Shown: positions 14,240 to 46,169 of the stretch, one piece after another
Position numbering within the stretch: position 1 is the stretch's first letter
Layout of the letters: every line of letters starts with the position of its first letter
NCBI GenBank assembly: GCA_965602015.1
Contig: OZ271918.1
Location: forward strand, 1,696,001-1,760,000
Length of the DNA: 64,000 nucleotides
Reading direction: 5' to 3'
DNA from: Salinispira sp.
GTDB lineage: Bacteria > Spirochaetota > Spirochaetia > DSM-27196 > Salinispiraceae
The notes under the pieces: generated by a model
Seen by the model: the letters and a program-made list of their open reading frames with translations, nothing else
What the model was told of the DNA's origin: nothing
Databases searched by the model: none
Made by a program: the position numbers and the translations under genes

Positions 14240-14442
14240 TGTAGACTGGCACATTAAATTGAGCAAACCGGCAAAGAAAATCTCAGAAACAGTTAAACAA
14301 TCTCTCAATCTGCTTAGGCAATAATTTACCCCTACCGAAATAAAAAAAAAGAGCAATGGGTCGAAAGTTTGGCGACTTCCCCATTGCTCTGACATCTCTC
14401 CCCAAGGGGAAAAACTAAACGTTATTTACTTGTCGGATAGAT

Positions 14443-14940: not shown

Positions 14941-14969
14941 GAAAACGTATCACTCTCAAGGAGGAGAAA

Positions 14970-17059: not shown

Positions 17060-17168
17060 ATGCTGCCCCTGCCGCGAATGCGGCAGGGGGTACCCTTCGT
17101 CAGTTTTACTTGTAAAATTGTTTGTCTGTACGTGCGAGGGTTAGGCTAATTTAATGTGCGAAGCTACA

Positions 17169-18058
17169 CACATTGCGGTAGTAGTGAACAACACACCGTT
17201 GCCAACGGGCTTTCGGAAAAAACTCCTTGATGGATTCTACAAGTCCAATGCATTTATCAGTGATAAATAGCTGACTATCCTTCAATCCACGAGCTTTCAG
17301 ATGGGTCAAGAAATTGCTCCAACCGGCTTTATCTTCCTTTTCACCTTCAACAATGCCCAATACGCTGCGATATCCGCTCTCTGAGACACCGATTGCCACC
17401 AGGATACTGACATTTCGCACTTCACCGGCCCAGGAGCGCTTGAGAATTGTACCGTCCAGGTAGACATAGGGATAGTCTTCGGTTAGCGGCTTATTGCGCC
17501 AGGCATCGATTTTCTCGTAGATCTCTTGATTGAGATTGCTGATTGTTGAGGGACTTACTTTGGTTCCCCAGAGCGCTTCGGTGATATCTTCTACCCGGCG
17601 GACGGAAACCCCGGCAAGATACATTTCTACCAACGCTTCCTCGACAGAAGTTTCCCGGCGCTTGTAGCGCTCGATTATTGCAGTTTCGAAGGGCAAGTTT
17701 CGAAGCTTGGGAACTTTGAGCTCGACTCGACCGGCGGTAGTATCGAGCTTTCGCTTGTAGTGCCCGGCTCGGGTGTCTTTGCGCGCATCTGTGCGCTCGT
17801 ACTTTTCTGCCTGGATCAGCCGATCGGCTTCTGCATCGAGCATGGCATTCAGAGTTTCTTCGACGGTTTCTTTGACCATCTGGGTTACCTGACTCTGTAC
17901 GAGACCCTCATCAATTTGTATGATCCTCCGAGTGGGATCGTTCTTCGGTTCCATTCTGTCCTCCTGGTTGAATGGTCTTGTGGTGATTCCATTTCAGCAT
18001 TGGAGGACATTTTTTTTCAATATCTTTTTTGAATGTGCGAAATTTTTTGGACGCTATC
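17169..18058 (-). mobile_element. Truncated IS256-family element (different member); transposase 17954 to 17169 lacks its C-terminus
   Basis: GVSVRRV, YLDG, WQRCVVHYYRNV then interrupted by the Mu-like element end; IR-like GATAGCGTCCAAAAAATTTCGCACATT read from 18058 on the - strand. Confidence 0.85.
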
Positions 18059-20590: not shown

Positions 20591-20706
20591 ATATAACAAC
20601 CACTTAACCTGTGAGCCGTAATTGGCGTGGAGTTTGCCCTGCCCTTCAGGGCAGGAATAGCAGACTCCATGACAATAGGCGAATCAGGTTGAAGTGCTTG
20701 TTATAT
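20591..20706 (-). repeat. attC site
   Basis: ATATAACAACCACTTAACCTGTGAGCCG...CGAATCAGGTTGAAGTGCTTGTTATAT. Confidence 0.93.
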
Positions 20707-21099
20707 TGCCCAATTCTCTATCTCTAACTCAGTAATCCGGCCGAAATGCTTTTCATTGTTTGTTACAAGAATCAGGTTATGTGTAATAGCTGTCGAGGCA
20801 ATCAATAAATCCATATCTGCAATAATGTTTCCATCCATTGCAAGTTTTGCTTTGAGTTGGCCAAAAGTTTCCATAACTGAATGAGTAATTGGCAGCAGAG
20901 GAAATATTTCTGCGATTCGATGAATGTTGGCCAGATTTTTTTCTCTATGAGTAGATTTATTAGCACCATATATTAATTCACCATAGGAAATAACAGAGAG
21001 AGATTTAGGTGAGTTTATATTTTTCTCGAAGTTCGATATAACCGTGGAGTGATTTTTGAGGCTATAGACTATTATGTCCGTATCAATCAAATAATTCAT
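20701..21099 (-). CDS. vapC: Cassette 18: VapC PIN-domain toxin
   Basis: YLIDTD, SYGEL, DLLIASTA, LVTNNEKHF. Confidence 0.9.
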   Translation of the reverse strand: MNYLIDTDIIVYSLKNHSTVISNFEKNINSPKSLSVISYGELIYGANKSTHREKNLANIHRIAEIFPLLPITHSVMETFGQLKAKLAMDGNIIADMDLLIASTAITHNLILVTNNEKHFGRITELEIENWAI

Positions 21100-21361
21100 T
21101 CGAGTTCTCAAAGCGATCGGAATTTCCCCTGGACCGTTTTATATCCATTACTATTTCTTCCGCAGATCGATCATCTGTCCAGCTTCCTGCCATTTGAAGA
21201 AATTCTTTTGTCGGATTTTTATGAAACTGTTCCGGTGTAGATAAATACTTTTGGATGATTAATATGACTTCTTGGCTAACCGAGCGCTTCTCCATCGCCG
21301 CCCGTTCTTTCAGCGAGTTATACAATTTATCATCGATGTCTTTCACTTGGAGATTTGCCAT
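21083..21361 (-). CDS. Cassette 18: ribbon-helix-helix (FitA-like) antitoxin
   Basis: MANLQVKDIDDKLYNSLKERAAMEKRSVSQEV; GGGAGG RBS; overlaps the toxin gene. Confidence 0.85.
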   Translation of the reverse strand: MANLQVKDIDDKLYNSLKERAAMEKRSVSQEVILIIQKYLSTPEQFHKNPTKEFLQMAGSWTDDRSAEEIVMDIKRSRGNSDRFENSNELFD

Positions 21362-21455
21362 GAGGTTCCTCCCAAACACGTATTATTCATGAAATATTAG
21401 TATATTTTCATGCAAATGTAATTGTAATCCGGAATCCTTCAGGGGTCAATATAAC

Positions 21456-23231
21456 GAGGCTGTAGAAAAAGTCCCTGCAGCCATCAATAATTCTACCCGG
21501 ACAGGCCTTTATAGGCAAAGCATAAAATGGCCTTCGTTTAATAAAGCGACTACGCCACCCTGTGTTTCCGGATTGCACTGGGAATCTCCAGTATGCCTCT
21601 CTTTCTTTTCTACTGCCAGCACATCTTCAGCTTTTCTATATTGTGCACCATACAAAACAACCGCCACTGGGTATTTACTTTTGTCTTCCCTCGCACCGTG
21701 AATCTGTTCAGCCCCTTGGTTCCGCATAAATCACCGAACACCGGTTCAACCGCCCCCATTCGCCGGGAGTAAATGCTTCGTGCCTCTGAGGTATCAAATC
21801 TGTCCTGACTAATCTTTAGGTAATCGATGGTCTGTGGCGTTTGTGTCCGCTTAAAAAACGTCACCTGCCTGAATGGACTTGCAGGTTTTCGAATACACTT
21901 GCTACGCAACTCACAATTGCTGCACTGTTCTTTGCTTGCCCTGTACCGATCCCCGACGAGCTTTCCGTCGGCGGATTTGAAATTCTTCATGTTTAGCCGC
22001 AATATATGCCCGGCCGGACAGGTAGCTATTTTCTTTTTCCGGTCGTAGTGAAAATCTGAGGGCTGGAAGTAGCGTTTGGTATGTACCGCCCTCCAGTTAT
22101 CAGTTTTCTTTTTATGAACTTCATTGCCAGTGAAGCGGATATCACGCTTGCGAAACTGATTATCCGGGATATATGCTTCAATCCCATGTTCAATGAGATA
22201 CTTCATATTCACAGCGTTATGAAACCCAGAGTCTGCTGTGATCACGGTTTTCCCGTAAATGTCAGATGAGATCCCGGTACTGCGGCATTGTTTCTTAATA
22301 CCAGTCAAGATTTCCGGCAAATGACCGGATTCATTGATATCACCATAGGCTTCGGCCCATACAATGACCTGATGTTTATCATCAACTGCAGCAATTCCAT
22401 TGTAGCCTTGAATGACACCATGGGAACTGACCATTTTTGCACTCTCATTGTCGGTGAGATTACTCTTCACCGGTTTGCCTGAGGCACCAAGCCTGTCATC
22501 ATTATCATCCAGCCAGCGGTTGATTTTATCTGCCTTGGTTTCCAGCTTTTTGATTGCTGCAATTTCCTGAACTTGATTCTCAGCAGGTGATTTCTGACCA
22601 TCCTCATTTTGATGCTTTTCAACCAGGTAGGCGATGGACTTTCTGATACTCCTGACTTTCTTCAGAAGCTCCGCCTTGGTCCCGCTCCATTCCTTGGAAC
22701 AGTTTGATGAAATCTTGCAGCCATCTATGGCAAACATTTCCTTGCCAATCAGGTTCTCTGAATAACAGATGGCAAGCACCTTGGTGAACAAATCGACACA
22801 TTCACTATCCATAGTTGCAATAAAATCGGCGATGGTGGTGTGATGCGGATGTGTATCGGCGGACAGAGCCATACAGATAATATTCTCATCACAAAACCGG
22901 GCAATCTTGCGACTGCTGGTTATCCCCCGTGAATAGGCAAAGAGAATAATCTTCAAAAGCACCGCCGGGTTATAGGCCGGGGCACCGGTAATATCATTCT
23001 GGCACCGCGACTCGAAAATAGAAAGATCAAGTTTTTTGCTGAAGAGGATGTGGAGTGTATGCTCAAATGTTCCAGGCAGAATTTGTTTTGACAGATTGAC
23101 CGGCAGCATTAACTGCTGATCGTAGGAATAGTCTTTGTATCGAGGCATGCCGTCCCTCCCATAGGCTGGCTGATACATGAATTTTACCATGGAACTACAT
23201 TTACTAGAAGCGGGACTTTTTCTACAGCCTC
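21456..23231 (-). mobile_element. IS1182-family element, intact, inserted in attC core site
   Basis: Perfect 20-bp IRs GAGGCTGTAGAAAAAGTCCC; 3-bp duplication AAC (21453-21455, 23232-23234). Confidence 0.92.
21610..23148 (-). CDS. IS1182-family transposase
   Basis: GAPAYNP, SSRKI, PHHTTIADF, IDGCKI, ADSGF, CPAG/CSNCELRSKC, VEPVFG; probable ATG at 23148 after GGGAGG. Confidence 0.9.
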   Translation of the reverse strand: MPRYKDYSYDQQLMLPVNLSKQILPGTFEHTLHILFSKKLDLSIFESRCQNDITGAPAYNPAVLLKIILFAYSRGITSSRKIARFCDENIICMALSADTHPHHTTIADFIATMDSECVDLFTKVLAICYSENLIGKEMFAIDGCKISSNCSKEWSGTKAELLKKVRSIRKSIAYLVEKHQNEDGQKSPAENQVQEIAAIKKLETKADKINRWLDDNDDRLGASGKPVKSNLTDNESAKMVSSHGVIQGYNGIAAVDDKHQVIVWAEAYGDINESGHLPEILTGIKKQCRSTGISSDIYGKTVITADSGFHNAVNMKYLIEHGIEAYIPDNQFRKRDIRFTGNEVHKKKTDNWRAVHTKRYFQPSDFHYDRKKKIATCPAGHILRLNMKNFKSADGKLVGDRYRASKEQCSNCELRSKCIRKPASPFRQVTFFKRTQTPQTIDYLKISQDRFDTSEARSIYSRRMGAVEPVFGDLCGTKGLNRFTVRGKTKVNTQWRLFCMVHNIEKLKMCWQ

Positions 23232-23341
23232 AACAACCACTTGAGCGGCGAGCCGTAATTGGCGTGGAGTTTGCCCGCCGCCAGGCGGAATGCGCAAACT
23301 CCATGACAATAGGCGAGTCCGTCTCGAAGTGCTTGTTATAT
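23232..23341 (-). repeat. attC site (original R' heptamer displaced to 21449-21455 by IS1182)
   Basis: AACAACCACTTGAGCGGCGAGCCG...CGAGTCCGTCTCGAAGTGCTTGTTATAT. Confidence 0.92.
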
Positions 23342-23346
23342 GGCCC

Positions 23347-24027
23347 TCAATATTCTACCAGATAATCTTCCTGGTAACCTTCTATAAATTTCAAAATAGA
23401 TTCATCATATTTCACTCGGATCGATTTGATAATTATCAATGTTGCAATATCAAAAAATTGCTTCGTCCTGGACATCGTGAAATATGAATTATCCAAATTT
23501 GATTTTTCATACGAGCGCGTACGGATATCAGATATCCACAGAGCAATTTCGTTTTTTGTGAGAATACCGGGAATCTCGGTTATCTCAGAGTCTGTAATCG
23601 AATTGAGAATGCCATCAAATTTATCTGGATCACCATGATAAATTGCCGATTCCAAAAAAGAATTTTCCGTTCGGTAGAGCTGTTCCCGAATATTATTACT
23701 CATCTCGGGATTGTATCGAAGTTTAAAATGCCAATTTAGCCAGTACAACATCAGGAAATCAGCTTGGAGATGAGACAACCATCCAAAAAGATAGCTGTGA
23801 TTAATCTGGCCCTCATACTTCTGGTAGAAATTCATCAGATTTTGAAATCGGACTGAAATATCTCTAGGGCCATACATATGGATGGCTCGCTTCTCATCAA
23901 GGGAAGCGTTTTTTCTCATGTGGATGGCATCGGGAGCTATACTCCCAATCAGGAACTGGCTTCGATCAAGATTGATCGTGTTGAGAATTCTGTCTGCAAT
24001 CTCAAGATGCAAAATGGTGTACGGCAT
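23347..24027 (-). CDS. Cassette 17: zinc-dependent phospholipase C-like protein
   Basis: MPxxxxH, GSIAPD, GWLSHLQAD pattern. Confidence 0.65.
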   Translation of the reverse strand: MPYTILHLEIADRILNTINLDRSQFLIGSIAPDAIHMRKNASLDEKRAIHMYGPRDISVRFQNLMNFYQKYEGQINHSYLFGWLSHLQADFLMLYWLNWHFKLRYNPEMSNNIREQLYRTENSFLESAIYHGDPDKFDGILNSITDSEITEIPGILTKNEIALWISDIRTRSYEKSNLDNSYFTMSRTKQFFDIATLIIIKSIRVKYDESILKFIEGYQEDYLVEY

Positions 24028-24081
24028 ATTTATTATTCAGCTTTCCTTATTGCAGATAGATTTCCGTTCTCCGAATAGTCC

Positions 24082-24181
24082 ATATAACAACCACTTAACC
24101 TGTGAGCCGTACATTGGCGCGTGTTTTTGCGAATGCAAAAACCGTGACAATAGGCGAATCAGGTTGAAGTGCTTGTTATAC
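24082..24181 (-). repeat. attC site
   Basis: 100-bp form with apical GTTTTTGCGAATGCAAAAAC. Confidence 0.93.
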
Positions 24182-24221
24182 GGCATTTTATCATCTTTTT
24201 AGTATTTTGATTATTATTTAT

Positions 24222-24626
24222 TTAATTTGAGATCAATTTAAGCCCATCAGTTACATACTGTTGGATTTTCTTGTCGTGTGAAATTAGTGTATATCCAGAT
24301 TCAATCGCCTGCCAGACTAACATTCGATCAAACGGATCTTTATGGTTTTCTTTTTTGGGTAAGCGATAATACGAAGTCAAAATCTCATTGGAGATCTCAG
24401 AAATTTCAAACCCCGATTTTGATATTTGGATCAATAATTGATCAGGATTGAGATCCCCCAAATCGAGTTTACCAAGAGAATATTTAATTGAAATTTCCCA
24501 TAAACTTATTCCCGACACGAATTTCTGATCTGAGGATGATTCCAAAATCTGGAGAATTTCTTTTGATAAGTTTTCGGGGTTGAAAAGTGTCCAGAGTAGG
24601 ATGTGGGTATCAACTAGATACATCAT
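24222..24626 (-). CDS. vapC: Cassette 16: VapC PIN-domain toxin
   Basis: LVDTHILLW, SLWEISIK, HKDPFDRML. Confidence 0.92.
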   Translation of the reverse strand: MMYLVDTHILLWTLFNPENLSKEILQILESSSDQKFVSGISLWEISIKYSLGKLDLGDLNPDQLLIQISKSGFEISEISNEILTSYYRLPKKENHKDPFDRMLVWQAIESGYTLISHDKKIQQYVTDGLKLISN

Positions 24627-24859
24627 TGGCCAATTAATTCTTCTTCAGTCATTTCGAAATCATTTGTGAATGCGATTTCGTGTTCTTTCAAGAGGCCAAT
24701 TTTAACTGAATGATTTTGATTTAATTCAGAGATCGGAATTAACGCTGCAACGCTTTTTTTATTCCGGCCGTATGTGATTATAATTTTTTCTCCAGATTCA
24801 ACTTCTTTAAGAATTTCAGAAAAGTGTGTTTTAAATTCTCCAACGGCAAAGGTTTTCAT
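24623..24859 (-). CDS. Cassette 16: Phd/YefM-family antitoxin
   Basis: EFKTHFSEILKEVESGEKIIIT; ATGA overlap with the toxin gene. Confidence 0.9.
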   Translation of the reverse strand: MKTFAVGEFKTHFSEILKEVESGEKIIITYGRNKKSVAALIPISELNQNHSVKIGLLKEHEIAFTNDFEMTEEELIGQ

Positions 24860-24929
24860 AGATTAATAATCTAATTATTTTGTCAACTTGTCAAGATCGT
24901 TTTCTGAGAGTGAATCAAATTTTATGTCC

Positions 24930-25044
24930 GTATAACAACCACTTGAGCGGCGAGCCGTCAATTGGCGTGGAGTGTGCCCGCCGCCAGGCGGAACAAGCAA
25001 ACTCCATGACAATAGGCGAGTCCGTCTCGAAGTGCTTGTTATAT
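24930..25044 (-). repeat. attC site
   Basis: GTATAAC...GTTATAT with conserved arms. Confidence 0.93.
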
Positions 25045-25051
25045 TCCGCTT

Positions 25052-26206
25052 CTATTCAACCTTCGTGAAGTACACTACATACTTCAATGATGTCTCTGCT
25101 GTGACTTCGCGATCGTCATTAAATTCAACTCCATTTTCTTCGAAGGTTAATGCGATTCCTCCTTTATAGAAGAATAGTCGTACTTCCCGAAATCCGACGC
25201 CTTCTCCGAATGTCCAATGGAATGGGGTATCTGCTTGAGTTTCGACAAAATATAAATCGAAATCACCTACACGAGAATTTTCTGCATAAATTCTATGGAG
25301 AGCCCTGATTGGTACGACTAGACTTTTCATTTCACTGGAAAATGTTAGCTCAATTTCAGAATTTTGAATCTGTTCAATATCAAACTCTAAATTTTCATGT
25401 TCCATAATACTGTGTGATTCATAAACATATCTACCTGCGAAATTTGTAAGGTAATCTGATGTAAATTGCTGAACGATTAGTTGAAGGGGAGCATCTATCG
25501 AACCGGCAAAAATATAAGGTTGTCTATATTCCCAAGTTCCAAGCCATTTCCTATCGGGTACATTTTCTTGATAATAGATATAAATCTGATCTCCGTCGGT
25601 CTTTAAATAGTTATTCCCATTAGAAAACGTTCGTCCATCAAATTCGAGTGTTATTTGATTGCGGATTATCTTGTTACCATTAAAAATATCGATTTCACTG
25701 ATAACAACCATCGAGTTTGAGATTGAAAGTTCCAATATTTCTGGTGCATGACCAGAACCTTGGAATCTACGAGGTAATTGCTGGACGTAGAAACCTTCAA
25801 ACTCAGTTATTTCCTGTACGGACTCAATGTTTGTGGTCTCCGGGAGTTGGAATCTGGGATAAGTCCCCGGAACTCGATTTGCGATTCTTGATGAGATTTC
25901 ATTAGCAATATTCGTTTCTATTTGCTCAATATAGCCGGAGAAGCACCAGCCGGAAAAACCTGTTTGGCTCTGCACTCTTACCCAGGGGGCAGTTATCGAA
26001 TTAATCGTTTCCACCTCCCCCGTTTCCAAAATCGTCACGGCGGTAAACTGTGGTAGCGTGGTGATTATTTCTGAATTAAGCGATTGATTTTCTCTAATCC
26101 TTAGGTTGTAGGTGACATAGTGCGTTGGAATAAATTGTTGCGCAAAAATATTTGCCGATATAATCATGAGCAAAATACATAAGAAGCGTTTCATCATCTC
26201 TCCCAT
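25052..26206 (-). CDS. Cassette 15: exported SH3-domain protein
   Basis: Signal peptide (MKRFLCILLMIISANIFA); LRIRE...WVRVQ...GWCFSGYI bacterial SH3 signature. Confidence 0.8.
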   Translation of the reverse strand: MGEMMKRFLCILLMIISANIFAQQFIPTHYVTYNLRIRENQSLNSEIITTLPQFTAVTILETGEVETINSITAPWVRVQSQTGFSGWCFSGYIEQIETNIANEISSRIANRVPGTYPRFQLPETTNIESVQEITEFEGFYVQQLPRRFQGSGHAPEILELSISNSMVVISEIDIFNGNKIIRNQITLEFDGRTFSNGNNYLKTDGDQIYIYYQENVPDRKWLGTWEYRQPYIFAGSIDAPLQLIVQQFTSDYLTNFAGRYVYESHSIMEHENLEFDIEQIQNSEIELTFSSEMKSLVVPIRALHRIYAENSRVGDFDLYFVETQADTPFHWTFGEGVGFREVRLFFYKGGIALTFEENGVEFNDDREVTAETSLKYVVYFTKVE

Positions 26207-26261
26207 CTAGATTGGAGCTATCTATCGATTCCATTAAACAACACACAGATATCATGCGTGA

Positions 26262-26376
26262 ATATAACAACCGCTTGAGCGGCGAGCCGTCAATTGGCGT
26301 GGAGTTTGCCCGCCGCCAGGCGGAATTCGCAAACTCCATGACAATAGGCGTGTCCGTCTCGAAGCGCTTGTTAAAT
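26262..26376 (-). repeat. attC site
   Basis: ATATAAC...GTTAAAT with conserved arms. Confidence 0.93.
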
Positions 26377-26395
26377 GGCGCTCCATCATCAACGA

Positions 26396-26671
26396 CTATT
26401 CGATCACGATTTTAATTTTTCGATCCAGAGCCCTCGCATATTTCTCGATCGTGGAAAGCCGGATATCTTCTGCATGATTCTCGATTCGGGAGATCGCAGG
26501 TTTCTTGGTATGTAGCTTCTCGGCCAGTTCTTCTTGAGTCATTCCTTTTTCAATTCTAGCTTGTTTCAGTAGGGCACCGATTTTGAAGTTCTCATATTCA
26601 GAATCATAATTAAGAGAAAATTCTGGATCCTTCTGCTTGCGATCATTAATATATTTTTGGAGATCACTCAT
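26396..26671 (-). CDS. Cassette 14: HigA-like XRE antitoxin
   Basis: ARIEKGMTQEELAEKL...ISRIEN HTH. Confidence 0.88.
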   Translation of the reverse strand: MSDLQKYINDRKQKDPEFSLNYDSEYENFKIGALLKQARIEKGMTQEELAEKLHTKKPAISRIENHAEDIRLSTIEKYARALDRKIKIVIE

Positions 26672-27015
26672 GTGTTCCTCCTCAGCCAATCTGCTTTGCG
26701 CCTCTCGGCCAAATTAATTTCTTTGGCTGGAGTCTTCTGTGATTTCTTGGAAAATCCATTCGTTAATACCACGAACTTGTTCCCATTTTGAAATCCCAGA
26801 ATACGATATGCGTTCCCTGAGCTTGGGGCCCGAACTTCCCAAATGTCGTCCGTGTTTTTCAATTTCTTGAAATATGAACTTGGAACCACATCCAGGTCTT
26901 CTATCAATTGAAGGACCCAAGTTACTTTCTCGGCATCTTTAGCTTTTAGATTATCCAAGAATTCAGCAATGGGCGATTCGCCGTTTTCTGTTTTGTAAAA
27001 GACAATCTGCCGCAT
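26668..27015 (-). CDS. Cassette 14: HigB/RelE-like (Gp49-like) toxin
   Basis: SPIAEFL, IWEVR, YRI, LTNGFSKKSQKTP; toxin-first order. Confidence 0.88.
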   Translation of the reverse strand: MRQIVFYKTENGESPIAEFLDNLKAKDAEKVTWVLQLIEDLDVVPSSYFKKLKNTDDIWEVRAPSSGNAYRILGFQNGNKFVVLTNGFSKKSQKTPAKEINLAERRKADWLRRNT

Positions 27016-27020
27016 AGATA

Positions 27021-27049
27021 ATGTTAACTTAAATGTTAACAGTTTGCAA
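27021..27049 (-). promoter_or_regulatory. Putative higBA promoter and operator
   Basis: TTGCAA-N17-TAACAT ending 5 nt before ATG; overlaps palindrome TGTTAAC-N6-GTTAACA (27022-27041). Confidence 0.6.
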
Positions 27050-27222
27050 CCCAAAGAATTCATTCAAATAACATTCGAATTTTAATAACTGATAGAGCAA
27101 AAAGAAGACGCTTCATTGTGATATAGGTTCGATTCTTTGAACTCAGCTCACAAGACCAGATCACAATAACGCGCCAACCCATATTTCTGAGATCACGCAA
27201 CTGATTGCGATCTCTTCGCTTA

Positions 27223-28573
27223 AATGGTGTCCAAATTAGTTCGCAATTTCATGTAGGAGCCAGCTTCCTCCAGCGGGTTAAGCGGCTATTTTCGGGATGA
27301 GATCTCGTTGCTCATCCAGTATTTCCTTTTTAATATAGGCCTTGCCGGCTGTCCAGTCTTCCGTGTATTCAATCAGGAAACAGGTCACCAATCTCAGGTA
27401 AGAATCCTGAGATGGGAAAATCCCGACGACTTTCGACCGCCGACGGATCTCCCGGTTCAGTCTTTCCAGCATGTTTGTCGAAGCGACCTTCCGATGATCG
27501 AGCTTTGGAAATTCATAGAACTGGAGTGAGTCTTCAAGTCCGTTATCCAGGATTTCCACCGCCTCAGGGAATTGCGATTCCAGATCATCCATCACCTGTT
27601 TGGCATATTCCCGTGCGGTACCGGCATCCGGTTGAAGCCAGATATGTTTGATACGGGCGGCAACATGCTCTTTGTGTTTGGCTCTCACTTTTGCCAACAC
27701 GTTCCGCATGAAATGTACTTTGCAGCGTTGCCAGCTGGAACCAAGGAATTCTTTCTGGATAGCATTCTTCAATCCCAGATGCGCATCTGAGACCACAAGC
27801 CACACGGACCGAAGGCCACGCTCCTTCAACCTCTGGATCAGGAACCGGTAATTGTCTTCATTTTCAGCATCCATGGGCTCTATGGCCAGGATTTCCCGTT
27901 CTCCAGCCCTGTTGAGGCCGCACACGACCATAACCGCATGATTGTAGACTCTCCCGTCATCCCGGATCTTTTCATACAGGGCGTCTATCCAGATTACTGG
28001 GTACTCCGCTTCAAGGGGGCGATTGCGAAATGTATCAACCTGTTCATCAAGACCTTTGTTGATTTCTGAAACCTGGCTTGCGGAAATATTCTCGATTCCC
28101 AGCTGTTTTGCCAGACGATCAATCTTCCGGGTTGAAACGCCGTTAATGAATGCTTCCTGGACAACCTGAAGAAGCGCCTGCTCAGACCGGCGCTTCTCGG
28201 TGACAAAGAAGGGGATATACCCTCCCTTTCGGAGCTTTGGAACCACCAGATACATGGTACCTAATCGGGTATCAAAACGGCGAACCCGTGTTCCGGAAAA
28301 GTGAGTAGCCCGGTTGTGGGAGTGCTGACCTTTGGGGGCACCGACCTTGGATTCGACTTCGATTTTCATAAGCTGCTCTGTTGTCCATTTGAGCATCTCA
28401 AACAAGGGATCGGATTCACCGGTGAATTGGGATAGCAGATTCTTGAAATCTGCGGTAGAGTTTTTTGGGGCCATGATTACTTACTCCTTCTGGTTGTGTA
28501 TCGCTACTTAACCTTCGGAGAGAATTGTGGCTCCTTTTACTTTTCTAAATTGCGAACATTATTGGACGTGATC
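27223..28573 (-). mobile_element. IS256-family element, copy 2
   Basis: Reverse complement of 3510-4860; 8-bp TSD TTCGCTTA. Confidence 0.95.
27278..28474 (-). CDS. IS256-family transposase
   Basis: Protein identical to 3609-4805. Confidence 0.95.
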   Translation of the reverse strand: MAPKNSTADFKNLLSQFTGESDPLFEMLKWTTEQLMKIEVESKVGAPKGQHSHNRATHFSGTRVRRFDTRLGTMYLVVPKLRKGGYIPFFVTEKRRSEQALLQVVQEAFINGVSTRKIDRLAKQLGIENISASQVSEINKGLDEQVDTFRNRPLEAEYPVIWIDALYEKIRDDGRVYNHAVMVVCGLNRAGEREILAIEPMDAENEDNYRFLIQRLKERGLRSVWLVVSDAHLGLKNAIQKEFLGSSWQRCKVHFMRNVLAKVRAKHKEHVAARIKHIWLQPDAGTAREYAKQVMDDLESQFPEAVEILDNGLEDSLQFYEFPKLDHRKVASTNMLERLNREIRRRSKVVGIFPSQDSYLRLVTCFLIEYTEDWTAGKAYIKKEILDEQRDLIPKIAA

Positions 28574-28934
28574 TTCGCTTATTGTCACGAAATTTCTTTT
28601 GCCAATAGTTCCGATTATTACTAATTGATTTTCTTCTTTTGCATTTGTGATTATGCCAAAAGCAACCGTTGATCAATATCACTGTCTTAAATCGGGGAAG
28701 AACAATATCTGGGGTACCGGGCAATTTCTTATTGTGGATAGTAAATCTATATCCATTTCTATGAAGAATGGATCTTATTAAAACCTCGGGCTTTGTGTTT
28801 TTCGAATGGATTTGCGACATTATGTAGCTTCGCTGGCGTGGCGAAAAAATATCCATGAACAACCCGGGTTATCTGTTTCCTATTACACTCCTGGAAATGA
28901 CTGTCTGATTTCTGATTGAAAATTTTTTACGTCC

Positions 28935-29051
28935 ATTTAACAACCACTTAACCTGTGAGCCGTACATTGGCATGGAGTTTGCCCTGCCCTTCAGGGCAGG
29001 ACCAGCGGACTCCATGACAATAGGCGAATCAGGTTGAAGTGCTTGTTATGA
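28935..29051 (-). repeat. attC site
   Basis: ATTTAAC...GTTATGA with conserved arms. Confidence 0.93.
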
Positions 29052-29732
29052 CGCGCCTTTATTTTTATGGCAGTTCATCTGATGAAGGTAAATTTCAATA
29101 TCCTTTTCATCTATACCCTGATTTTCAATCAGTTGCCATCTATCGCTGTTCTTTAGTAATTGAATTATTTCTTTTGCCGACATTGATAAATCTTCGCCAT
29201 AATGTTTCCCAGTGATTTCATAGATATGTTGTGAGATAGTAAAAGTCTTCGGAATCTCTTGCTTCAAGGTAGCGTTATAACATAGGTGTCCACCCGCAGC
29301 ATAAATTAGGAAACCTTTCTCGGTAAGATGATTTTCTTCATCGATAAAATGCTTTTCTTTCAAAATCTTATAATTTTTATTTTCTACATCGGGTTCTTTC
29401 TTGAAATAGCATTGTTGTAATAATTTCCAATTTGCCTTTTCTGAAAGAAGAGAGAAGAAATCAGAAACAGTAGAAAAATCCTCGAGATAATTTCCGATCG
29501 CATATGTCGGAAGATTTGTTGTGTACCAACCATTTTCCAAATCATATGCCAGCAATTGCGATAATCCTTGATGGGAATTTTCATGGACTACTTTCTTTAG
29601 GTTTTCTAATGCAACATCGTGACCACAAACTACACTCGTCGGTTCGGAATCTGAGTCTATTTCCGAAAGCTTTGCTTTTAATCGTGTGATTTCTTTTTTC
29701 AAGAAGGCTCGGTTATTTTCAAACTGATTCAT
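29046..29732 (-). CDS. Cassette 13: hypothetical protein
   Basis: 228 aa ORF filling the cassette; stop within R''. Confidence 0.75.
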   Translation of the reverse strand: MNQFENNRAFLKKEITRLKAKLSEIDSDSEPTSVVCGHDVALENLKKVVHENSHQGLSQLLAYDLENGWYTTNLPTYAIGNYLEDFSTVSDFFSLLSEKANWKLLQQCYFKKEPDVENKNYKILKEKHFIDEENHLTEKGFLIYAAGGHLCYNATLKQEIPKTFTISQHIYEITGKHYGEDLSMSAKEIIQLLKNSDRWQLIENQGIDEKDIEIYLHQMNCHKNKGAS

Positions 29733-29813
29733 GGAGCATCCCGATAATTTTAGAGATTACAAACATAGTATCATAAATACCATTAATTAACAGTAAGAAA
29801 ATCTTCTACGTCG

Positions 29814-29924
29814 TCATAACAACCTGTTGAGCGGCGAGCCGTACATGGCGCAAAACTTGCCTGGCGAAGCCAGAAAAGCAAGTTTTGTGACATAGGCGAG
29901 TCCGTCTCGAACAGCTTGTTATGT
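29814..29924 (-). repeat. attC site (divergent, with compensatory arm changes)
   Basis: TCATAACAACCTGTTGAGCGG...CCGTCTCGAACAGCTTGTTATGT. Confidence 0.9.
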
Positions 29925-29932
29925 ACTGTATT

Positions 29933-30352
29933 TCAATTTATTGATCGTCTCTCGCCAAGTTTTTCCACAATATCATCAACTACTGCAGATAAATTTTTCT
30001 TAATATCTGATTGCCAATAGCGTAGAACTTTCCAACCATCATGTTCTAAACTGGATGTAACTTCCCGGTCTCTCTCTTTATTTCGCGAAATCTTTTGTGT
30101 CCAGTAATCCACGTTTGTTTTTGGCATACTAAAATTTTCTGGGTGCATATGCCAAAAATCTGAATCAATGAATACAATAACCTTTCCATTTCTAAAGACA
30201 ATATCCGGCTTTCCAATTATTTTTTTTACATGCTTTGTAAAATATATTTTCCTTTTACGTAATTCCTTAAAAACCATTTTCTCCGGCTGAGTATTAATAG
30301 ATTTTATATTTTTCATATTTAGATGTCTTTCTTCAGGAGTTAGATTATCCAT
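29933..30352 (-). CDS. vsr: Cassette 12: Vsr endonuclease
   Basis: MKNIKSINTQPE, GKPDIV, FIDSDFWH, GWKVLRYW. Confidence 0.92.
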   Translation of the reverse strand: MDNLTPEERHLNMKNIKSINTQPEKMVFKELRKRKIYFTKHVKKIIGKPDIVFRNGKVIVFIDSDFWHMHPENFSMPKTNVDYWTQKISRNKERDREVTSSLEHDGWKVLRYWQSDIKKNLSAVVDDIVEKLGERRSIN

Positions 30353-31347
30353 TAGAAATAATTATCTGTTTTAGAAAAGTCCATCAAATAGTTTTCATCA
30401 TCGATTTTATAAAAAGTAACGTGGACTCTTCCATATCGCTCTAGATCCGATCTACTTACGTAAGCCCCATTTGCCAAACCTAATCGGTGACGAAAATATT
30501 CACCTAATAAACTATTATTATGTGGTGTTTCTATTGCTTGACCATTTTCATCTTTTTGTGCACGTGCACAATTAAATACTTTAGAATCGTCAGTTACGAC
30601 TGTAAAATGCTGAGGCTTTGGTGGAAAGAAATCGCTTCTATAAACATCCGGTGTCAATTGAATATATGCTTGATTTGGTTCTCGCCCTGGTCTTTGCCCC
30701 CAATTTAAACCACCTTTACTTTGCACTTCACCATCACGAGAAGAAATTAAAGGAATTCGTACAGATTCAACGTTAGTTAAATTGGATTGAGAAGCAGTGC
30801 CGGAGTGCTCTTCCGTTGTATGTTTACGATAATATCTGTAATCGCTATATACAGTTATATAATTTTCGACTTCCGAATGATTACAATAAACGGAGTCTTT
30901 TTCGATCTCATTATAATAATCTATCACATCCAGATCACTGATCTGAGACAGAATTTCCCTCTGTTTAGTTCTTTCATTCTTTAAAAATGCATTCTGTGTG
31001 TAATTCGCAGAGCCAATAAATGATTTATACAATTCATTCTTTTTTTTCCAAATATATAATTTGCTATGAACTGCAGGAGCTTCAGAAACATAACCACATG
31101 AAAACCGATTTTGAAAATCAGTGCCCATTATTGATTGAAAACCTTTATGATTGCTAATGGAAATACCATCTGAAGGTACCATGCCAACTAGTAGTGATAC
31201 CTTGATGTCAGAATTAATCTCAGAAATTTCTGATAAGTGGTGAAAAGCCATAGCAGACGTAGCATAACCAGATATGATTAATAATTCATCTGCCCCTTCT
31301 CGAGCTGGTACAATTAACGATTCATGGTAAAGTTTTTTTGTTAACAT
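30352..31347 (-). CDS. Cassette 12: PLD-superfamily restriction endonuclease (NgoFVII-like)
   Basis: HSKLYIW...GSANYT (HxK/GSxN) motif, SGYAT, GLNWGQR; located between Dcm and Vsr. Confidence 0.8.
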   Translation of the reverse strand: MLTKKLYHESLIVPAREGADELLIISGYATSAMAFHHLSEISEINSDIKVSLLVGMVPSDGISISNHKGFQSIMGTDFQNRFSCGYVSEAPAVHSKLYIWKKKNELYKSFIGSANYTQNAFLKNERTKQREILSQISDLDVIDYYNEIEKDSVYCNHSEVENYITVYSDYRYYRKHTTEEHSGTASQSNLTNVESVRIPLISSRDGEVQSKGGLNWGQRPGREPNQAYIQLTPDVYRSDFFPPKPQHFTVVTDDSKVFNCARAQKDENGQAIETPHNNSLLGEYFRHRLGLANGAYVSRSDLERYGRVHVTFYKIDDENYLMDFSKTDNYF

Positions 31348-32495
31348 TAGTTCGTTATGTATACATCCTCTTTTTCAAGTATGTACAACTGCTCCTTCGA
31401 TGTTTCATTATATAATTCTAAATGCTCTGGAAGAATGATAGATTCAAAATTTGGTTTTATCGACTCATATTGTTCACCGGAAAAACTTTTCAAAACAGCT
31501 TCAAAAATAATTCTTGCGCCATCAACAGGAACAGCCATTCCGATTTGCTTTCTCACGCTTTCTTTGGAACCTATAAAAGTAAATGAATCGGGAAATGTTT
31601 GAAGCCGTGCTCGTTCACGATTAGTCAAAGCTCTGTTTTCACTCCAATGGTAGACATGTGTTCCTCCACCGCCACTTCCTGTCACTGTATATGACGGTTT
31701 TGTAGGGTCTAACCTACGATAAATTTGACTAATTTTTGCACCTTTAACATTTAACTGTAAATGCTCTGGAATAACCGCTGTAAATGCATTTTGTCCGGGT
31801 TTTATATATTTTAATCTTTCAACCACAGTTGGGGACTGCTTAGTAAACTCATTATTACTAGCATTCTCAGGGATAGGTGGATTTTCTATAGCATCCTTAC
31901 AGGTTCTTAACTTTGTCTGATATGGATTGGGTGATGGAATTTGAAAAGTTACATTTTGACTCTTATGAATTCCAATAATAATAATTCGATGCCTAGCTTG
32001 CGGAATTCCATATTCATTGAATTTGTATAGATGCGGATATAGAGAATAACCAGCATCCGCCATTTCTTGAAGGATTTTGGAAAAAGCTTTTCCATCATTT
32101 GAATTTCGGAGGCCACCAACATTTTCGGCTAAAAACCATTTAGGAGAAAATTCCTTTAGCGCTTTTACCCCATATGAATACAGGGGACCAAAAACACCAT
32201 CTATTCCTTTTTGCTCTCCAACTACACTAAAATCATTACAAGGGAAACCAAAAGCTAAGGCATCGATTTCAGATAAATCACGAAGGATGGTATAATCTAA
32301 TTTTCGTATATCTTTACAAACAACCGTATTTTTATCAGAAGCAACATTTTCTGCATAAGTAGAACATGTATCCTTGTCATAATCGCTTGCCCATGCATGC
32401 TCTATATAATAATTTGGATCATTAACCAATGCTGTTTTTGCCGCATAACCAATACCACCTGGTCCGCAGAACAGTTCACCAAGACGAAATTTCAT
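31347..32495 (-). CDS. dcm: Cassette 12: DNA (cytosine-5) methyltransferase
   Basis: LFCGPGG, GFPCNDFS, ENV, QARHR, RERARLQTFP, QIGMAV motifs. Confidence 0.95.
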   Translation of the reverse strand: MKFRLGELFCGPGGIGYAAKTALVNDPNYYIEHAWASDYDKDTCSTYAENVASDKNTVVCKDIRKLDYTILRDLSEIDALAFGFPCNDFSVVGEQKGIDGVFGPLYSYGVKALKEFSPKWFLAENVGGLRNSNDGKAFSKILQEMADAGYSLYPHLYKFNEYGIPQARHRIIIIGIHKSQNVTFQIPSPNPYQTKLRTCKDAIENPPIPENASNNEFTKQSPTVVERLKYIKPGQNAFTAVIPEHLQLNVKGAKISQIYRRLDPTKPSYTVTGSGGGGTHVYHWSENRALTNRERARLQTFPDSFTFIGSKESVRKQIGMAVPVDGARIIFEAVLKSFSGEQYESIKPNFESIILPEHLELYNETSKEQLYILEKEDVYITN

Positions 32496-32585
32496 AGCGC
32501 CCCCCCCCGATGGAAATTATTTTAGCACAATATTTAGTTGCGCTCCACTCAACAATTGTTAAGTTTTAGATTTTTTTATACATGT

Positions 32586-32685
32586 ACATAACAACCACTT
32601 AACCTGTGAGCCGTACATTGGCGCGTGTTTTTGCGAATGCAAAAACCGTGACAATAGGCGAATCAGGTTGAAGTGCCTGTTATAT
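32586..32685 (-). repeat. attC site
   Basis: 100-bp form; shares the variant GTGCCTGTT with 46070-46169. Confidence 0.93.
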
Positions 32686-33084
32686 GGCCAAATCTCTCAA
32701 CAACCAAGATCAGTTCCCTACACCTTGTTTCCAACCTTCGACCCGCTTTCAATTATGATCCACTAAACTACGCAGATTTTCAATAATCTCACCGAAGTAG
32801 CTGCAGGAGTGAGGGAAAATCAGATTAACCCCCGGTCTACTTCTCGAATCCCCTAACCCAAACGAGAATCCAATTTCAAAACTTTTCAGGATTCGATTTC
32901 CACCCCGATGTTACTTGCCGAGGGAATCATTCACATAATTCCAATTTTCATAGTATGCCCAAGCAAAACCACCAAAATTTTTTAATAAGATTCGAGTAAT
33001 AAAATGAGGAGCGAATGATCTTTAAAGCCCGAAGAAACCCGGAATTCAAGAAATTATGAGAACATGAAACTTCGTCCATATAAC
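32686..33084 (-). other. Cassette 11: ORF-less cassette (diverged copy of cassette 1)
   Basis: No ORF of 60 aa or more; matching ends GTTATAT/ATATAAC; collinear with 46170-46570. Confidence 0.85.
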
Positions 33085-34218
33085 GAGGCTGTAGAAAAAG
33101 TCCCTGCAGCCATCAATAATTCTACCCGGACAGGCCTTTATAGGCAAAGCATAAAATGGCCTTCGTTTAATAAAGCGACTACGCCACCCTGTGTTTCCGG
33201 ATTGCACTGGGAATCTCCAGTATGCCTCTCTTTCTTTTCTACTGCCAGCACATCTTCAGCTTTTCTATATTGTGCACCATACAAAACAACCGCCACTGGG
33301 TATTTACTTTTGTCTTCCCTCGCACCGTGAATCTGTTCAGCCCCTTGGTTCCGCATAAATCACCGAACACCGGTTCAACCGCCCCCATTCGCCGGGAGTA
33401 AATGCTTCGTGCCTCTGAGGTATCAAATCTGTCCTGACTAATCTTTAGGTAATCGATGGTCTGTGGCGTTTGTGTCCGCTTAAAAAACGTCACCTGCCTG
33501 AATGGACTTGCAGGTTTTCGAATACACTTGCTACGCAACTCACAATTGCTGCACTGTTCTTTGCTTGCCCTGTACCGATCCCCGACGAGCTTTCCGTCGG
33601 CGGATTTGAAATTCTTCATGTTTAGCCGCAATATATGCCCGGCCGGACAGGTAGCTATTTTCTTTTTCCGGTCGTAGTGAAAATCTGAGGGCTGGAAGTA
33701 GCGTTTGGTATGTACCGCCCTCCAGTTATCAGTTTTCTTTTTATGAACTTCATTGCCAGTGAAGCGGATATCACGCTTGCGAAACTGATTATCCGGGATA
33801 TATGCTTCAATCCCATGTTCAATGAGATACTTCATATTCACAGCGTTATGAAACCCAGAGTCTGCTGTGATCACGGTTTTCCCGTAAATGTCAGATGAGA
33901 TCCCGGTACTGCGGCATTGTTTCTTAATACCAGTCAAGATTTCCGGCAAATGACCGGATTCATTGATATCACCATAGGCTTCGGCCCATACAATGACCTG
34001 ATGTTTATCATCAACTGCTGTAGCCTCTCAAATTAAATTGATCAAACCAGCATAGAAAATCTCACAAACAGTTAAACAATCTCTCATTCCACTTAGACCG
34101 GAAATTTTATCTGCCGACAAAAAAAGAGCAATGGTGTTGAAGTTTGCCGACTCCCCATTGCTCTTAAAACCTCACCCCCAAAGGGGGCAAATAAACGTTA
34201 CTTATTTGTCGGATAGTT

Positions 34219-34716
34219 TTGGAAAAACTTCAAGCGCTTGGGAAACAGTTCCACTGGAAAAAACCTGAATGTTGTCCCGAGTGTGGAAGCATACGGCTAT
34301 GGGGGCACGGCTTCGTTCTTCGGCAGTTTGTCGGGTTTGCCCAAGGACTGTGGATGAAGCGGTATCGATGTCCGGACTGCCATGGGGTTCATACCTGTAG
34401 GCCACAGCAGTTCTTGCCGGGGATGCAATATCCTGTTCAAACTCAAATCTCCAGCCTGGAAGCAAAGCTTGCAGGAAAGCCGTTCCTTCAAACTGTGTCG
34501 AGGCAGATCCAGCAGCATTGGTGGAAGACATTTCTCAACCACTGCCGCCGTAGCGGCAACTGGACTGCCCCACATTCGGTTTTCCTCCGCAGGCAGAGCG
34601 ATGATCAAATACCAGTAACAACCAGGCGAATATACCGTGAGATCTGGTCAGAAGCCTGCGTACCCTACCTGCCTTTTGCGCTGACAGTGAAACCGCGTCC
34701 ATTTAGCCTTGAGTGA
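34219..34716 (+). CDS. Zn-finger accessory protein of Mu-like element (DUF6431-like)
   Basis: CPECGS..LWGHG..RYRCPDC..HT pattern; TTG start. Confidence 0.7.
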   Translation: MEKLQALGKQFHWKKPECCPECGSIRLWGHGFVLRQFVGFAQGLWMKRYRCPDCHGVHTCRPQQFLPGMQYPVQTQISSLEAKLAGKPFLQTVSRQIQQHWWKTFLNHCRRSGNWTAPHSVFLRRQSDDQIPVTTRRIYREIWSEACVPYLPFALTVKPRPFSLE

Positions 34717-34745
34717 GAAAACGTATCACTCTCAAGGAGGAGAAA

Positions 34746-36029
34746 ATGGACAGAGAAAAGAAAGAAAAGATCGCAGTATTCCGCTTCGGGGTCATCTTTC
34801 CGCTTGTGGAGAAAGACCTACACCAGTATTGGGGAGAGAAAGAGCGAATCCTGCGGGAGCTGGTCAGCAAGGAATGGGAGATTCCCTTTTCAAACCGAAA
34901 CTACATCAGCAAGGCCACCATCCTGACCTGGGTAAAGCGCTACGAAGATGGCGGGCGGAAGATTGAAGCCTTGTTTCCTGAGAATCGCGGCGACAAGGGC
35001 CGGATGAGAAGCATTTCCGATGAACAAATCGATGCGCTCATGCTGCTTCGAAAAGAGCATCCAAAACTCTCCACCCCGCGTCTGGTTGAAATTGCTCAAG
35101 GAAACGGCGTCTTTCCGTCCGGAAAAGAGGTCTCCATGGCCAGCATTTACCGGCTCATGAAGATCCGCAAAGCCCAACGGGTCAAAGTCGAGTCTGACAT
35201 GAGGAAGTTCGAGGTACAATTGCCCAACGACCTGTGGCAGTCAGACTGCATGCACGGTCCGAAAGTTCTGCATGGCGGGAAACTGAGAAAGACCTATCTG
35301 TTTGCAATCATTGACGACCATTCAAGGCTCATTACCCATGGCCAGTTCTACCTGGCTGAAACACTGGAAAATTACCTGGACTGCTTATGGACGGCGTTAC
35401 GCAAGCGGGGAGTTCCCCGAAAGCTCTATGTCGATAACGGGGCATCATTTAAGGCGCACAGGCTCCAGTTGGGATGTGCTTCGCTGGAAATCGGGCTGCG
35501 CTATGCACGGCCGTACCGACCCCAGGGAAAGGGCAAGATTGAACGGTTCTTTCGTACCGTACGTAGCCAGTTTATCCCCGAGCTGCCTGATGAACTTCCT
35601 CTGGATGAGATCAACCGGCTGTTTCACCACTACATTGAAAACGGTTATCACCAGAGGATCCATGGCGGTACGGGGCAGAAGCCCCTGGAGCGTTACCTGC
35701 AGGATGCCCATGCCTTGCGAAAAGCGCCGGAGAACTTGCCTGAATACTTTCGAAAACGCGAGGAGCGAACGGTAAACAACGACCGGACGGTGAAACTCGA
35801 TGGCCGTTTGTATGAAGCCCCTGCGGGATTGGTTGGCATGAAAGTCGTCCTGCGTTTTGAGAATTACGACCGGATTGAAGTCTTTCTCGAGAATCAGTCA
35901 AAGGGATTCTTAAGGGATCTGGATCAGGGAGTGAACAGCCGCATTAAGCGGGACGGCACGGGTCCGGTCATGCCGTCGGCTTCGGGGGGAGCTCTTTTTG
36001 AAAAGCTGGGCTCAAAGGCAGGTAGCTAA
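34746..36029 (+). CDS. Mu-like DDE transposase/integrase
   Basis: Near-identical to 14970-16253. Confidence 0.9.
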   Translation: MDREKKEKIAVFRFGVIFPLVEKDLHQYWGEKERILRELVSKEWEIPFSNRNYISKATILTWVKRYEDGGRKIEALFPENRGDKGRMRSISDEQIDALMLLRKEHPKLSTPRLVEIAQGNGVFPSGKEVSMASIYRLMKIRKAQRVKVESDMRKFEVQLPNDLWQSDCMHGPKVLHGGKLRKTYLFAIIDDHSRLITHGQFYLAETLENYLDCLWTALRKRGVPRKLYVDNGASFKAHRLQLGCASLEIGLRYARPYRPQGKGKIERFFRTVRSQFIPELPDELPLDEINRLFHHYIENGYHQRIHGGTGQKPLERYLQDAHALRKAPENLPEYFRKREERTVNNDRTVKLDGRLYEAPAGLVGMKVVLRFENYDRIEVFLENQSKGFLRDLDQGVNSRIKRDGTGPVMPSASGGALFEKLGSKAGS

Positions 36030-36835
36030 TGGATACGCTGCGCCACCACTTTGGATTCCGGCACAACCCGTTCCCGCAGAATGTAGCGGTAAAGGACCTG
36101 TACCCCTTACCGGCATTGGAACCCCTGCGGCAGCGGGTGTTCTTTGCCCTGGAGCAGAAAGCCATTGCCGTCATCACCGGAGATGTGGGGTCGGGAAAGT
36201 CTACGTCATTGCGCTATGTCTCAAGCAAATGCCATTCGAGTGAGTATGAACTGATTACCATTGTCGGCGGGAACTTCTCACCCATGGAACTGTACCGGCA
36301 GATCCTGCTCACTTTCGGCATGAGCTATATGTCGTTCCAGGTATCGATCATGATCTCGAAGATCCGGGAGCTTATTCTGGAAATTGCATCCCGCAATGTC
36401 ATCCCGGTGCTGGTAATCGATGAGGCTCATCTGCTGAAACGGTCAGTGTTTACCCAGCTGCATACCCTTGCTCAGTTTGAATTCGATTCCAAACCGGTCA
36501 TGCCGATGATTCTCTGCGGTCAGGATTTCCTGCTCGATCATCTGATGGCTAACTCAGTTCGGCCTCTGGCGTCCCGGGTGCTGGGCAAGAATCATCTGGA
36601 GTCTATTAAGAAGGAGGTGATGGAAGATTACCTGAATCATCACATCACCCTGGCCGGGGGAACAAAGAAAGCATTCAGTGATGAGGCGATCTTTGCCATT
36701 CATCAGGGATCCGGTGGTCTCTTGCGGAAAGCCAACTCCCTGGCGAAAACGGCTCTCCTTGCCTGCGCCGGAGATGGTGGACAGACTGTTTCTGCAGAAC
36801 ACGTCCGGGTCGCTTCCACCGAGATTTTTATGTAA
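36029..36835 (+). CDS. ExeA-like AAA+ ATPase
   Basis: Near-identical to 16253-17059. Confidence 0.9.
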   Translation: MDTLRHHFGFRHNPFPQNVAVKDLYPLPALEPLRQRVFFALEQKAIAVITGDVGSGKSTSLRYVSSKCHSSEYELITIVGGNFSPMELYRQILLTFGMSYMSFQVSIMISKIRELILEIASRNVIPVLVIDEAHLLKRSVFTQLHTLAQFEFDSKPVMPMILCGQDFLLDHLMANSVRPLASRVLGKNHLESIKKEVMEDYLNHHITLAGGTKKAFSDEAIFAIHQGSGGLLRKANSLAKTALLACAGDGGQTVSAEHVRVASTEIFM

Positions 36836-37790
36836 ATGCTGCCCCTGCCGCGAATGCGGCAGGGGGTACCCTTCGTCAGTTTTACTTGTAAAATTGTTTG
36901 TCTGTACGTGCGAGGGTTAGGCTAATTTAATGTGCGAAGCTACACTGCAGCAATTCCATTGTAGCCTTGAATGACACCATGGGAACTGACCATTTTTGCA
37001 CTCTCATTGTCGGTGAGATTACTCTTCACCGGTTTGCCTGAGGCACCAAGCCTGTCATCATTATCATCCAGCCAGCGGTTGATTTTATCTGCCTTGGTTT
37101 CCAGCTTTTTGATTGCTGCAATTTCCTGAACTTGATTCTCAGCAGGTGATTTCTGACCATCCTCATTTTGATGCTTTTCAACCAGGTAGGCGATGGACTT
37201 TCTGATACTCCTGACTTTCTTCAGAAGCTCCGCCTTGGTCCCGCTCCATTCCTTGGAACAGTTTGATGAAATCTTGCAGCCATCTATGGCAAACATTTCC
37301 TTGCCAATCAGGTTCTCTGAATAACAGATGGCAAGCACCTTGGTGAACAAATCGACACATTCACTATCCATAGTTGCAATAAAATCGGCGATGGTGGTGT
37401 GATGCGGATGTGTATCGGCGGACAGAGCCATACAGATAATATTCTCATCACAAAACCGGGCAATCTTGCGACTGCTGGTTATCCCCCGTGAATAGGCAAA
37501 GAGAATAATCTTCAAAAGCACCGCCGGGTTATAGGCCGGGGCACCGGTAATATCATTCTGGCACCGCGACTCGAAAATAGAAAGATCAAGTTTTTTGCTG
37601 AAGAGGATGTGGAGTGTATGCTCAAATGTTCCAGGCAGAATTTGTTTTGACAGATTGACCGGCAGCATTAACTGCTGATCGTAGGAATAGTCTTTGTATC
37701 GAGGCATGCCGTCCCTCCCATAGGCTGGCTGATACATGAATTTTACCATGGAACTACATTTACTAGAAGCGGGACTTTTTCTACAGCCTC

Positions 37791-37903
37791 AACAACCACT
37801 TAACCTGTGAGCCGTACATTGGCGTGGAGTTTGCCCTGCCCTTCAGGGCAGGAACAGCAAAATCCATGACAATAGGCGAATCAGGTTGAAGTGCTTGTTA
37901 AAT
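37791..37903 (-). repeat. attC site (original R' heptamer displaced to 33078-33084 by IS1182)
   Basis: AACAACCACTTAACCTGTGAGCCG...GTGCTTGTTAAAT. Confidence 0.92.
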
Positions 37904-46069: not shown

Positions 46070-46169
46070 GCATAACAACCACTTAACCTGTGAGCCGTAC
46101 ATTGGCGCGCGTTTTTGCGAATGCAAAAACCGTGACAATAGGCGAATCAGGTTGAAGTGCCTGTTATAT
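46070..46169 (-). repeat. attC site
   Basis: 100-bp form. Confidence 0.93.

Follow-up and report, generated by a model that had tools for sequence, protein, structure and literature searches.

The 64,000-nt window analysed here carries an integron cassette array in which two copies of one insertion sequence (IS) occupy the same position of two different attC sites, which raises the question of whether this element is specialised on attC and by what means it finds its target. The first copy (21456-23231, minus strand) is intact and 1,776 bp long, while the second (33085-37790, minus strand) is interrupted by a nested IS. When the nested element was skipped, the two copies proved to be 100% identical over 1,776 bp, each with perfect 20-bp terminal inverted repeats (IRs), and no further copy was found in the whole 3.87-Mb genome. 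Three FlaA matches above cut-off suggest that this genome is probably that of a spirochaete. On the plus strand both copies show the junction ATAT-AAC[IS]AAC-AACCACTT, which reads attC...GTT[IS]GTTATAT on the cassette (minus) strand, i.e., the IS is inserted at R′ and the GTT is duplicated (3 bp). The genome-wide comparison thus agreed with the initial annotation, which had described two insertions at the same nucleotide and in the same orientation with a 3-bp duplication. The duplicated GTT beyond the right end of the IS lies at 21453-21455 in copy 1, where it forms an orphan core without a hairpin, and at 33082-33084 in copy 2 (both minus strand). Both junctions of copy 1 were spanned by contigs from a public run, possibly of the source sample, with 30 letters past the right-hand junction. 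The break in copy 2, absent from the initial annotation, is due to an IS481-like/ATPase element (34019-36944, plus strand) flanked by a CTGC duplication and containing a DUF6431 ORF, an rve/Mu-C transposase gene (34713-36029) and an AAA ATPase gene (36029-36835).

The transposase ORF of the intact copy (21610-23190, minus strand) encodes 526 aa from the first ATG; the alignment with relatives begins at the second Met, which gives 512 aa. This single protein contains the domain pair expected for the IS1182 family, DUF772 (PF05598, E=3.7e-13) and DDE_Tnp_1_6 (PF13751, E=6.2e-24), and the 20-bp terminal IRs and the short (3 bp) target duplication also conform to this family. NF033551 was by far the top NCBIfam model (E=1.2e-78), with 265.2 bits against a cut-off of 270, and several close homologues bear the NCBI name "IS1182 family transposase". 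In the transposase alignment D142 and E468 are invariant and D306 is nearly so (alignment numbering); judged by known motifs, these residues are assigned to the DDE catalytic triad that, together with an RNase H-like fold, is expected for the IS1182 family. The AlphaFold model (pLDDT 77.8) found Tn5 transposase as its best PDB matches, which were weak (E=1.5e-3, TM 0.34), and gave no pointer to the part responsible for targeting.

The two target attC sites measure 106 bp (23232-23337) and 109 bp (37791-37899) from AAC to GTT, both on the minus strand, and their R′ GTTs (23232-23234 and 37791-37793) adjoin the left end of the IS. Both sequence subtypes named at first reading were recovered, and the cassettes on both sides differ between the two insertion sites. 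Downstream of copy 1 lies a cassette (20595-21455, minus strand) with a FitA-like RHH antitoxin and PIN toxin pair and its own attC, and downstream of copy 2 a cassette (32590-33084, minus strand) that has an IS-free paralogue at the attI position (46074-46570; 93% identity for 46174-46570). The cassette upstream of copy 2 occurs a second time in the same genome (G000:3454068-3454906, 99.8%), where the second target attC was found empty (G000:3453959-3454067). The array (20595-46570, minus strand) has 16 detected attC sites, two of them occupied, and 12 further sites elsewhere bring the genome total to 28. The integrase gene intI (46714-47973, plus strand; TIGR02249, 379.5 bits, cut-off 265) is divergent from the array, and the GTT at 46568-46570 (minus strand), which lies between intI and the first cassette, was for that reason assigned as the probable attI core. 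When the bottom strands were folded with DNA parameters, the occupied attCs kept AAC/GTT and all arms paired, with energies of -32.2 and -29.6 kcal/mol versus -34.4 and -31.5 kcal/mol for the empty sites, which bears out the earlier proposal that the conserved GTT and all arms survive insertion. The chance of both copies falling at an attC R′ is p=2.6e-6 among YGTTR sites (28 attCs), 1.2e-4 among TGTTA sites and 8e-3 among TTGTTAT sites.

To see how the junctions behave beyond two insertions, homologues were collected from a GTDB scan (28 loci), a metagenome scan (the best 80 of 538), genome searches and three plasmid records. The end-finder called 394 ends, of which 331 had an inverted repeat; these were collapsed into 166 records, but not all of these are independent because the halves of broken elements count twice. 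The junction triplet was GTT or AAC in 151 records and another one in 15. Identical 3-bp flanks were present in 102/103 two-ended records, the duplication being GTT in 77, AAC (reverse orientation) in 17 and another triplet in eight, so that GTT/AAC accounted for 94/103. GTT was followed by R (GTTR) in 125/126 cases and preceded by Y in 99/102, and positions further out vary. The GTT records are spread over 50 transposase clusters (70% identity); named hosts include Marinobacter, Zhongshania, Reinekea, Neptunomonas, Motiliproteus, Sterolibacteriaceae, Sulfurirhabdus and Pseudoalteromonas, with about 38-56% identity, and one GTT record (L211) comes from an unpublished genome (G695). Among the matches listed from the plasmid collection only three records, from Alteromonadales, exceeded 40% identity, the others having 25-27%, and no relative was found in the viral contigs scanned. 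Two runs from a single microbialite metagenome study contained a 96%-identical element on a 1,784-bp contig, which ends 5 and 3 bases past the element; such ends would fit several copies that share only the GTT/GTTAT flanks.

Elements with other junctions served as controls. On the FastTree tree, from which three short outgroup rows were left out and whose base was left open, 12 metagenomic rows with other triplets group together (99) beside the GTT group, and one stray ACC row falls inside it. A distant IS1182 element in another genome had TAA/TTA/TAG-type junctions in the nine copies compared. The non-attC relatives have the same element layout.

GTT is a short motif, and attC-likeness in the relatives was therefore scored by our own spacing-plus-L-box rule on those 86 GTT records whose hairpin-side flank extended to 170 nt, against 500 random GTT and 500 random YGTTR sites from the same flanks, genuine attCs included. 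At an L-box score of >=6.5, 38/86 targets passed versus 15/500 GTT and 46/500 YGTTR sites; at >=6 the counts were 54/86 versus 60/500 and 95/500. On visual inspection most of the 32/86 targets below 6 resembled attC, some with a degenerate R″ and others long or of the spirochaete type, and about a dozen of the 32 did not on the hairpin side. Two other measures separated targets less well: an arm-alignment score did so modestly (median 6 for targets versus 4 for null sites), and the MFE "foot" score was a weak discriminator. Among this dozen, the insertions L081 and L170 lie inside ORFs, and the off-target L081, like L189, resembles attC ends in its linear sequence; L165, L189, L219 and L233 are ambiguous as attC, and the second record of L004 adjoins another transposase. 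In multi-copy genomes the full copies sat at hairpin feet in 5/5 (G055), 4/5 (G182) and 4/6 (G240) cases, as did 3/3 two-ended copies of G002, whose fourth copy has no left end. The relatives' junctions and the L-box rule thus agree with the initial view of a DDE element that is attC-specific at the core GTT and leaves the hairpin intact, and most relatives were found at attC-like sites rather than at non-attC positions or a bare short motif. Judged from its insertion sites, attC targeting is a lineage-wide property that extends across phyla.

Which foot of the hairpin is used, and in which orientation, was scored for the 31 records in which gene direction is consistent with the extra-helical base (three others conflict). 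Twenty were inserted at R′ and oriented as in the window, five at R′ but reversed, and six at R″. Reverse orientation was seen in 17/94 GTT/AAC records and clusters on the tree, with five changes. Foot and orientation were uniform among the attC-located copies within a given genome. The G055, G182 and G240 lineages use R″, the gene-proximal foot, between a cassette gene and its attC; in G055 this is supported by gene stops at the junction, by an attC of this family that carries no insertion and by the position of intI, and in G182 and G240 the polarity was derived mostly from gene direction, the integrase-like genes there being below the TIGR02249 cut-off. The window element and most relatives fit the idea that the IS forms the 5′ part of the downstream cassette, and these three lineages do not. 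Stacks separated by GTT were found in L073 (IS, MITE, MITE) and L080 (MITE, IS, MITE), and solo MITEs stand at GTT in L016, L175 and L212, which suggests that an occupied attC stays a target.

Two groups of attC specialists were found in the literature. The IS1111-attC group (ISPa21, ISPst6, ISKpn4; IS1111 family) is an attC-specific IS lineage with a DEDD transposase and a seekRNA, which inserts near the attC 5′-end, antisense to the array (PMC3001079, PMC11187229). The group IIC-attC introns (S.ma.I2) are a monophyletic set, specialised on attC, within a family whose other members insert after palindromes (PMC3001079). The window element works like IS1111-attC, with which its lineage shares specific insertion at cassette attC sites, but it is an IS1182-like DDE element: it matched DDE families alone, has terminal IRs and a 3-bp GTT duplication, lies mostly at R′ in its lineage and shows no guide signal. 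With the introns it shares being an attC-specialist subset of a wider family; unlike those retro-elements, which enter the bottom strand between gene and attC, it is a DNA transposon. Within the IS1182 family itself, IS1272 and TnSha1 of staphylococci target stem-loop structures (PMC5678879, PMC4923244); both papers cite Siguier et al. for palindrome-targeting members. According to these papers, IS1272 strikes terminator-like hairpins with no specificity for sequence, and the stem is deleted with no target duplication. The window lineage resembles these elements in family and in its hairpin-located targets, but it leaves the hairpin in place, and what it duplicates is an invariable GTT. A literature search covering the main text of open-access papers found no link between IS1182 and attC, so this targeting is apparently undescribed in print, as had been supposed.

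These observations are probably explained by a cross-phylum IS1182-like DDE lineage that is specialised on attC, duplicates the GTT/AAC triplet of the hairpin foot, keeps the site and reads it by protein without an RNA guide. The evidence is comparative throughout, and it shows that the transposase inserts with a 3-bp stagger at the foot, R′ here and in most relatives, where the triplet is that of the IntI crossover, and R″ in some spirochaete lineages. The attC retains its triplet and arms, no cassette gene is broken and, as the stacks suggest, the site can be struck again; the element would thereby gain a harbour between genes that is safe and recurs many times. In view of the missing guide signal we infer that the protein alone recognises YGTTR, placed at a constant distance (5-7 nt) from the L-box stem. 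The short conserved core (Y-GTT-R) with the fixed L-box distance favours a readout of structure plus sequence, probably flanking sequence mixed with an extruded stem (the foot of a hairpin or cruciform), for instance a stem that is extruded in part, the GTT itself lying in neighbouring duplex DNA; such structure reading would be akin to the hairpin targeting of IS1272. A lagging-strand-template hypothesis was compared with GC skew, which is weak throughout: it fits G000, G002 and 4/5 G055 copies and misfits the four plus-strand G182 copies and 2/6 G240 copies with a nearby skew sample. The more elaborate scheme, in which the protein reads the extruded stem and GTT foot on its own, whatever the variable sequence of the attC, sublineages choose R′ or R″, and R′ inserts are IntI-mobile at the head of the next cassette so that the IS is spread by both machineries, is put forward tentatively and is less likely than not.

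The strongest competitor, somewhat less probable than not but a serious one, is that the transposase reads a linear motif of ~10-14 bp, present mainly at one foot of the host's attC family, with the hairpin dispensable. Such a motif would be rare enough, as the 9-11-bp sequence around the insertion site occurs only 8-38 times in G000, and the choice of one foot per genome, though YGTTR is present on both, would follow from it; the off-targets L081 and L189, which mimic attC ends linearly, keep pure sequence readout alive. Against it, only YGTTR is strongly conserved across the lineage, yet it occurs 17,079 times in G000, and attCs of different subtypes are struck by one element both in the window genome and in G240. 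Moreover, another member of this family, IS1272, finds its targets by their structure and not by their sequence (PMC5678879, PMC4923244).

Entry dependent on IntI, by integration of an excised IS circle or recruitment of the transposase at G/TT, is unlikely. The insertion triplet is indeed the crossover triplet, and IntI or IntI-like genes were present in 6/6 hosts or records checked (G459 and W01 above the TIGR02249 cut-off, G240 and G182 below it, G002 and G055 strongly matching the window IntI). However, a 3-bp duplication is usual in the non-attC relatives too, so the stagger is the transposase's own and the junction can be accounted for without IntI; R″ insertions, insertions in either orientation and those inside ORFs are not IntI products, and the catalytic D, D and E residues of the transposase are conserved. 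Still less credit is due to a mere short-motif preference combined with selection, by which the IS would enter any YGTTR and survive mainly in dispensable cassette arrays: some off-targets exist and the window array has gathered other ISs (IS256, IS5-like, IS481-like), but none of these lies on an R′ GTT, and arrays are rich in other YGTTR sites, yet it is the hairpin foot that is struck, as the excess over YGTTR sites at the stricter score indicates. Guidance by RNA as in IS1111-attC is the most improbable, for although about 150-200 bp of non-coding DNA follow the transposase gene, the enzyme is DDE and not DEDD, the layout is the same in non-attC relatives, and the longest word shared by non-coding region and own target averaged 6.34 nt, as against 6.35 nt when the pairs were shuffled (n=76); this is a coarse comparison, which would overlook guides that are split and very short. 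No RNA run was among the sequencing runs listed for the element.

IntI crosses over at G/TT, and an R′ insert would accordingly head the next cassette and could be cut out with it as its 5′ part. The element itself lacks an attC; on folding, the recombinant attC would keep AAC/GTT and lose about 6 kcal/mol of outer pairing. Mobilisation of the IS-bearing cassette by IntI is thus plausible on the arrangement of the sites but gained no support from the relatives: no moved [IS+cassette] unit was found among downstream flanks of >=150 nt, where no downstream cassette was shared by two elements. Repeated upstream flanks in G002 were considered as moved units and rejected, as they come from paralogous cassettes.

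Next to IS1111-attC and the group IIC-attC introns, this lineage would make up a third class of attC parasites, mechanistically independent of the other two. Among those found in the literature, it would be the first to use a DDE transposase. Given its size (6,831 protein clusters at E<=1e-100 among 8,000 scored, non-attC sisters included), it probably often shapes cassette arrays in the environment, which it may split and supply with homology for rearrangements. The attC and non-attC sister clades have much the same layout and therefore offer a tractable comparison of how a structured, sequence-variable target is chosen without a guide, and insertions of the lineage could mark divergent attC sites. 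A consensus scan also revealed a single outward-facing promoter match (9/12) in the right end of the IS, at 21518-21490.

The attC-targeting IS1182-like lineage is accompanied by MITEs of 98–166 bp that carry the same ends, are flanked by GTT or AAC and occur solo or in stacks. Among the loci with relatives of the window's element, they were found at L073:3493-3735, L080:2313-2410 and 4186-4332, L016:2287-2452, L175:4391-4499, and L212:241-399. A sister clade (L085, L092, L094, L127, and L133) duplicates GCT rather than GTT; its insertions share a flanking context, roughly AACT-GCT-AT, and its target sites have a low hairpin-foot score.

In the window array, toxin–antitoxin and defence cassettes are abundant between 20701 and 44831, including PIN/RHH, Gp49-like/HTH and HepT/nucleotidyltransferase cassettes, and an NgoFVII-like restriction enzyme with a C5 methylase and Vsr. 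One cassette is present in two 93%-identical versions (32690-33084 and 46174-46570), one of them in first position; no ORF of at least 80 aa was found inside it, and it is possibly non-coding. The probable attI core region (46568-46580) bears no insertion, despite matching the R' foot of attC nearly letter for letter.

The IS481-like/AAA-ATPase element, which is nested in the second IS1182-like copy at 34019-36944 of the window, has six copies across the source genome (G000), including G000:C1:3441497-3444423 and a 95% variant at approximately 14240-17169 of the window. One copy interrupts the L'' box of an attC in the second array of this genome, while the remaining copies are located elsewhere.

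Among the relatives' genomes, integrase-like recombinases at G240:C2:46723-47529 and G182:C1:1226612-1227424 scored below the TIGR02249 cut-off. The G240 gene adjoins a cassette-like array and lies on the strand of the array genes, an arrangement like that of Treponema-type integrons. The G002 array (G002:C1:2219000-2234000) contains several 85–95% paralogues of an approximately 880-bp cassette, and one of its attC sites is interrupted by a different IS. In the window, a single ORF of 1,624 aa (51423-56297) encodes both an AcrB-type transporter and an outer-membrane efflux (OEP) domain.
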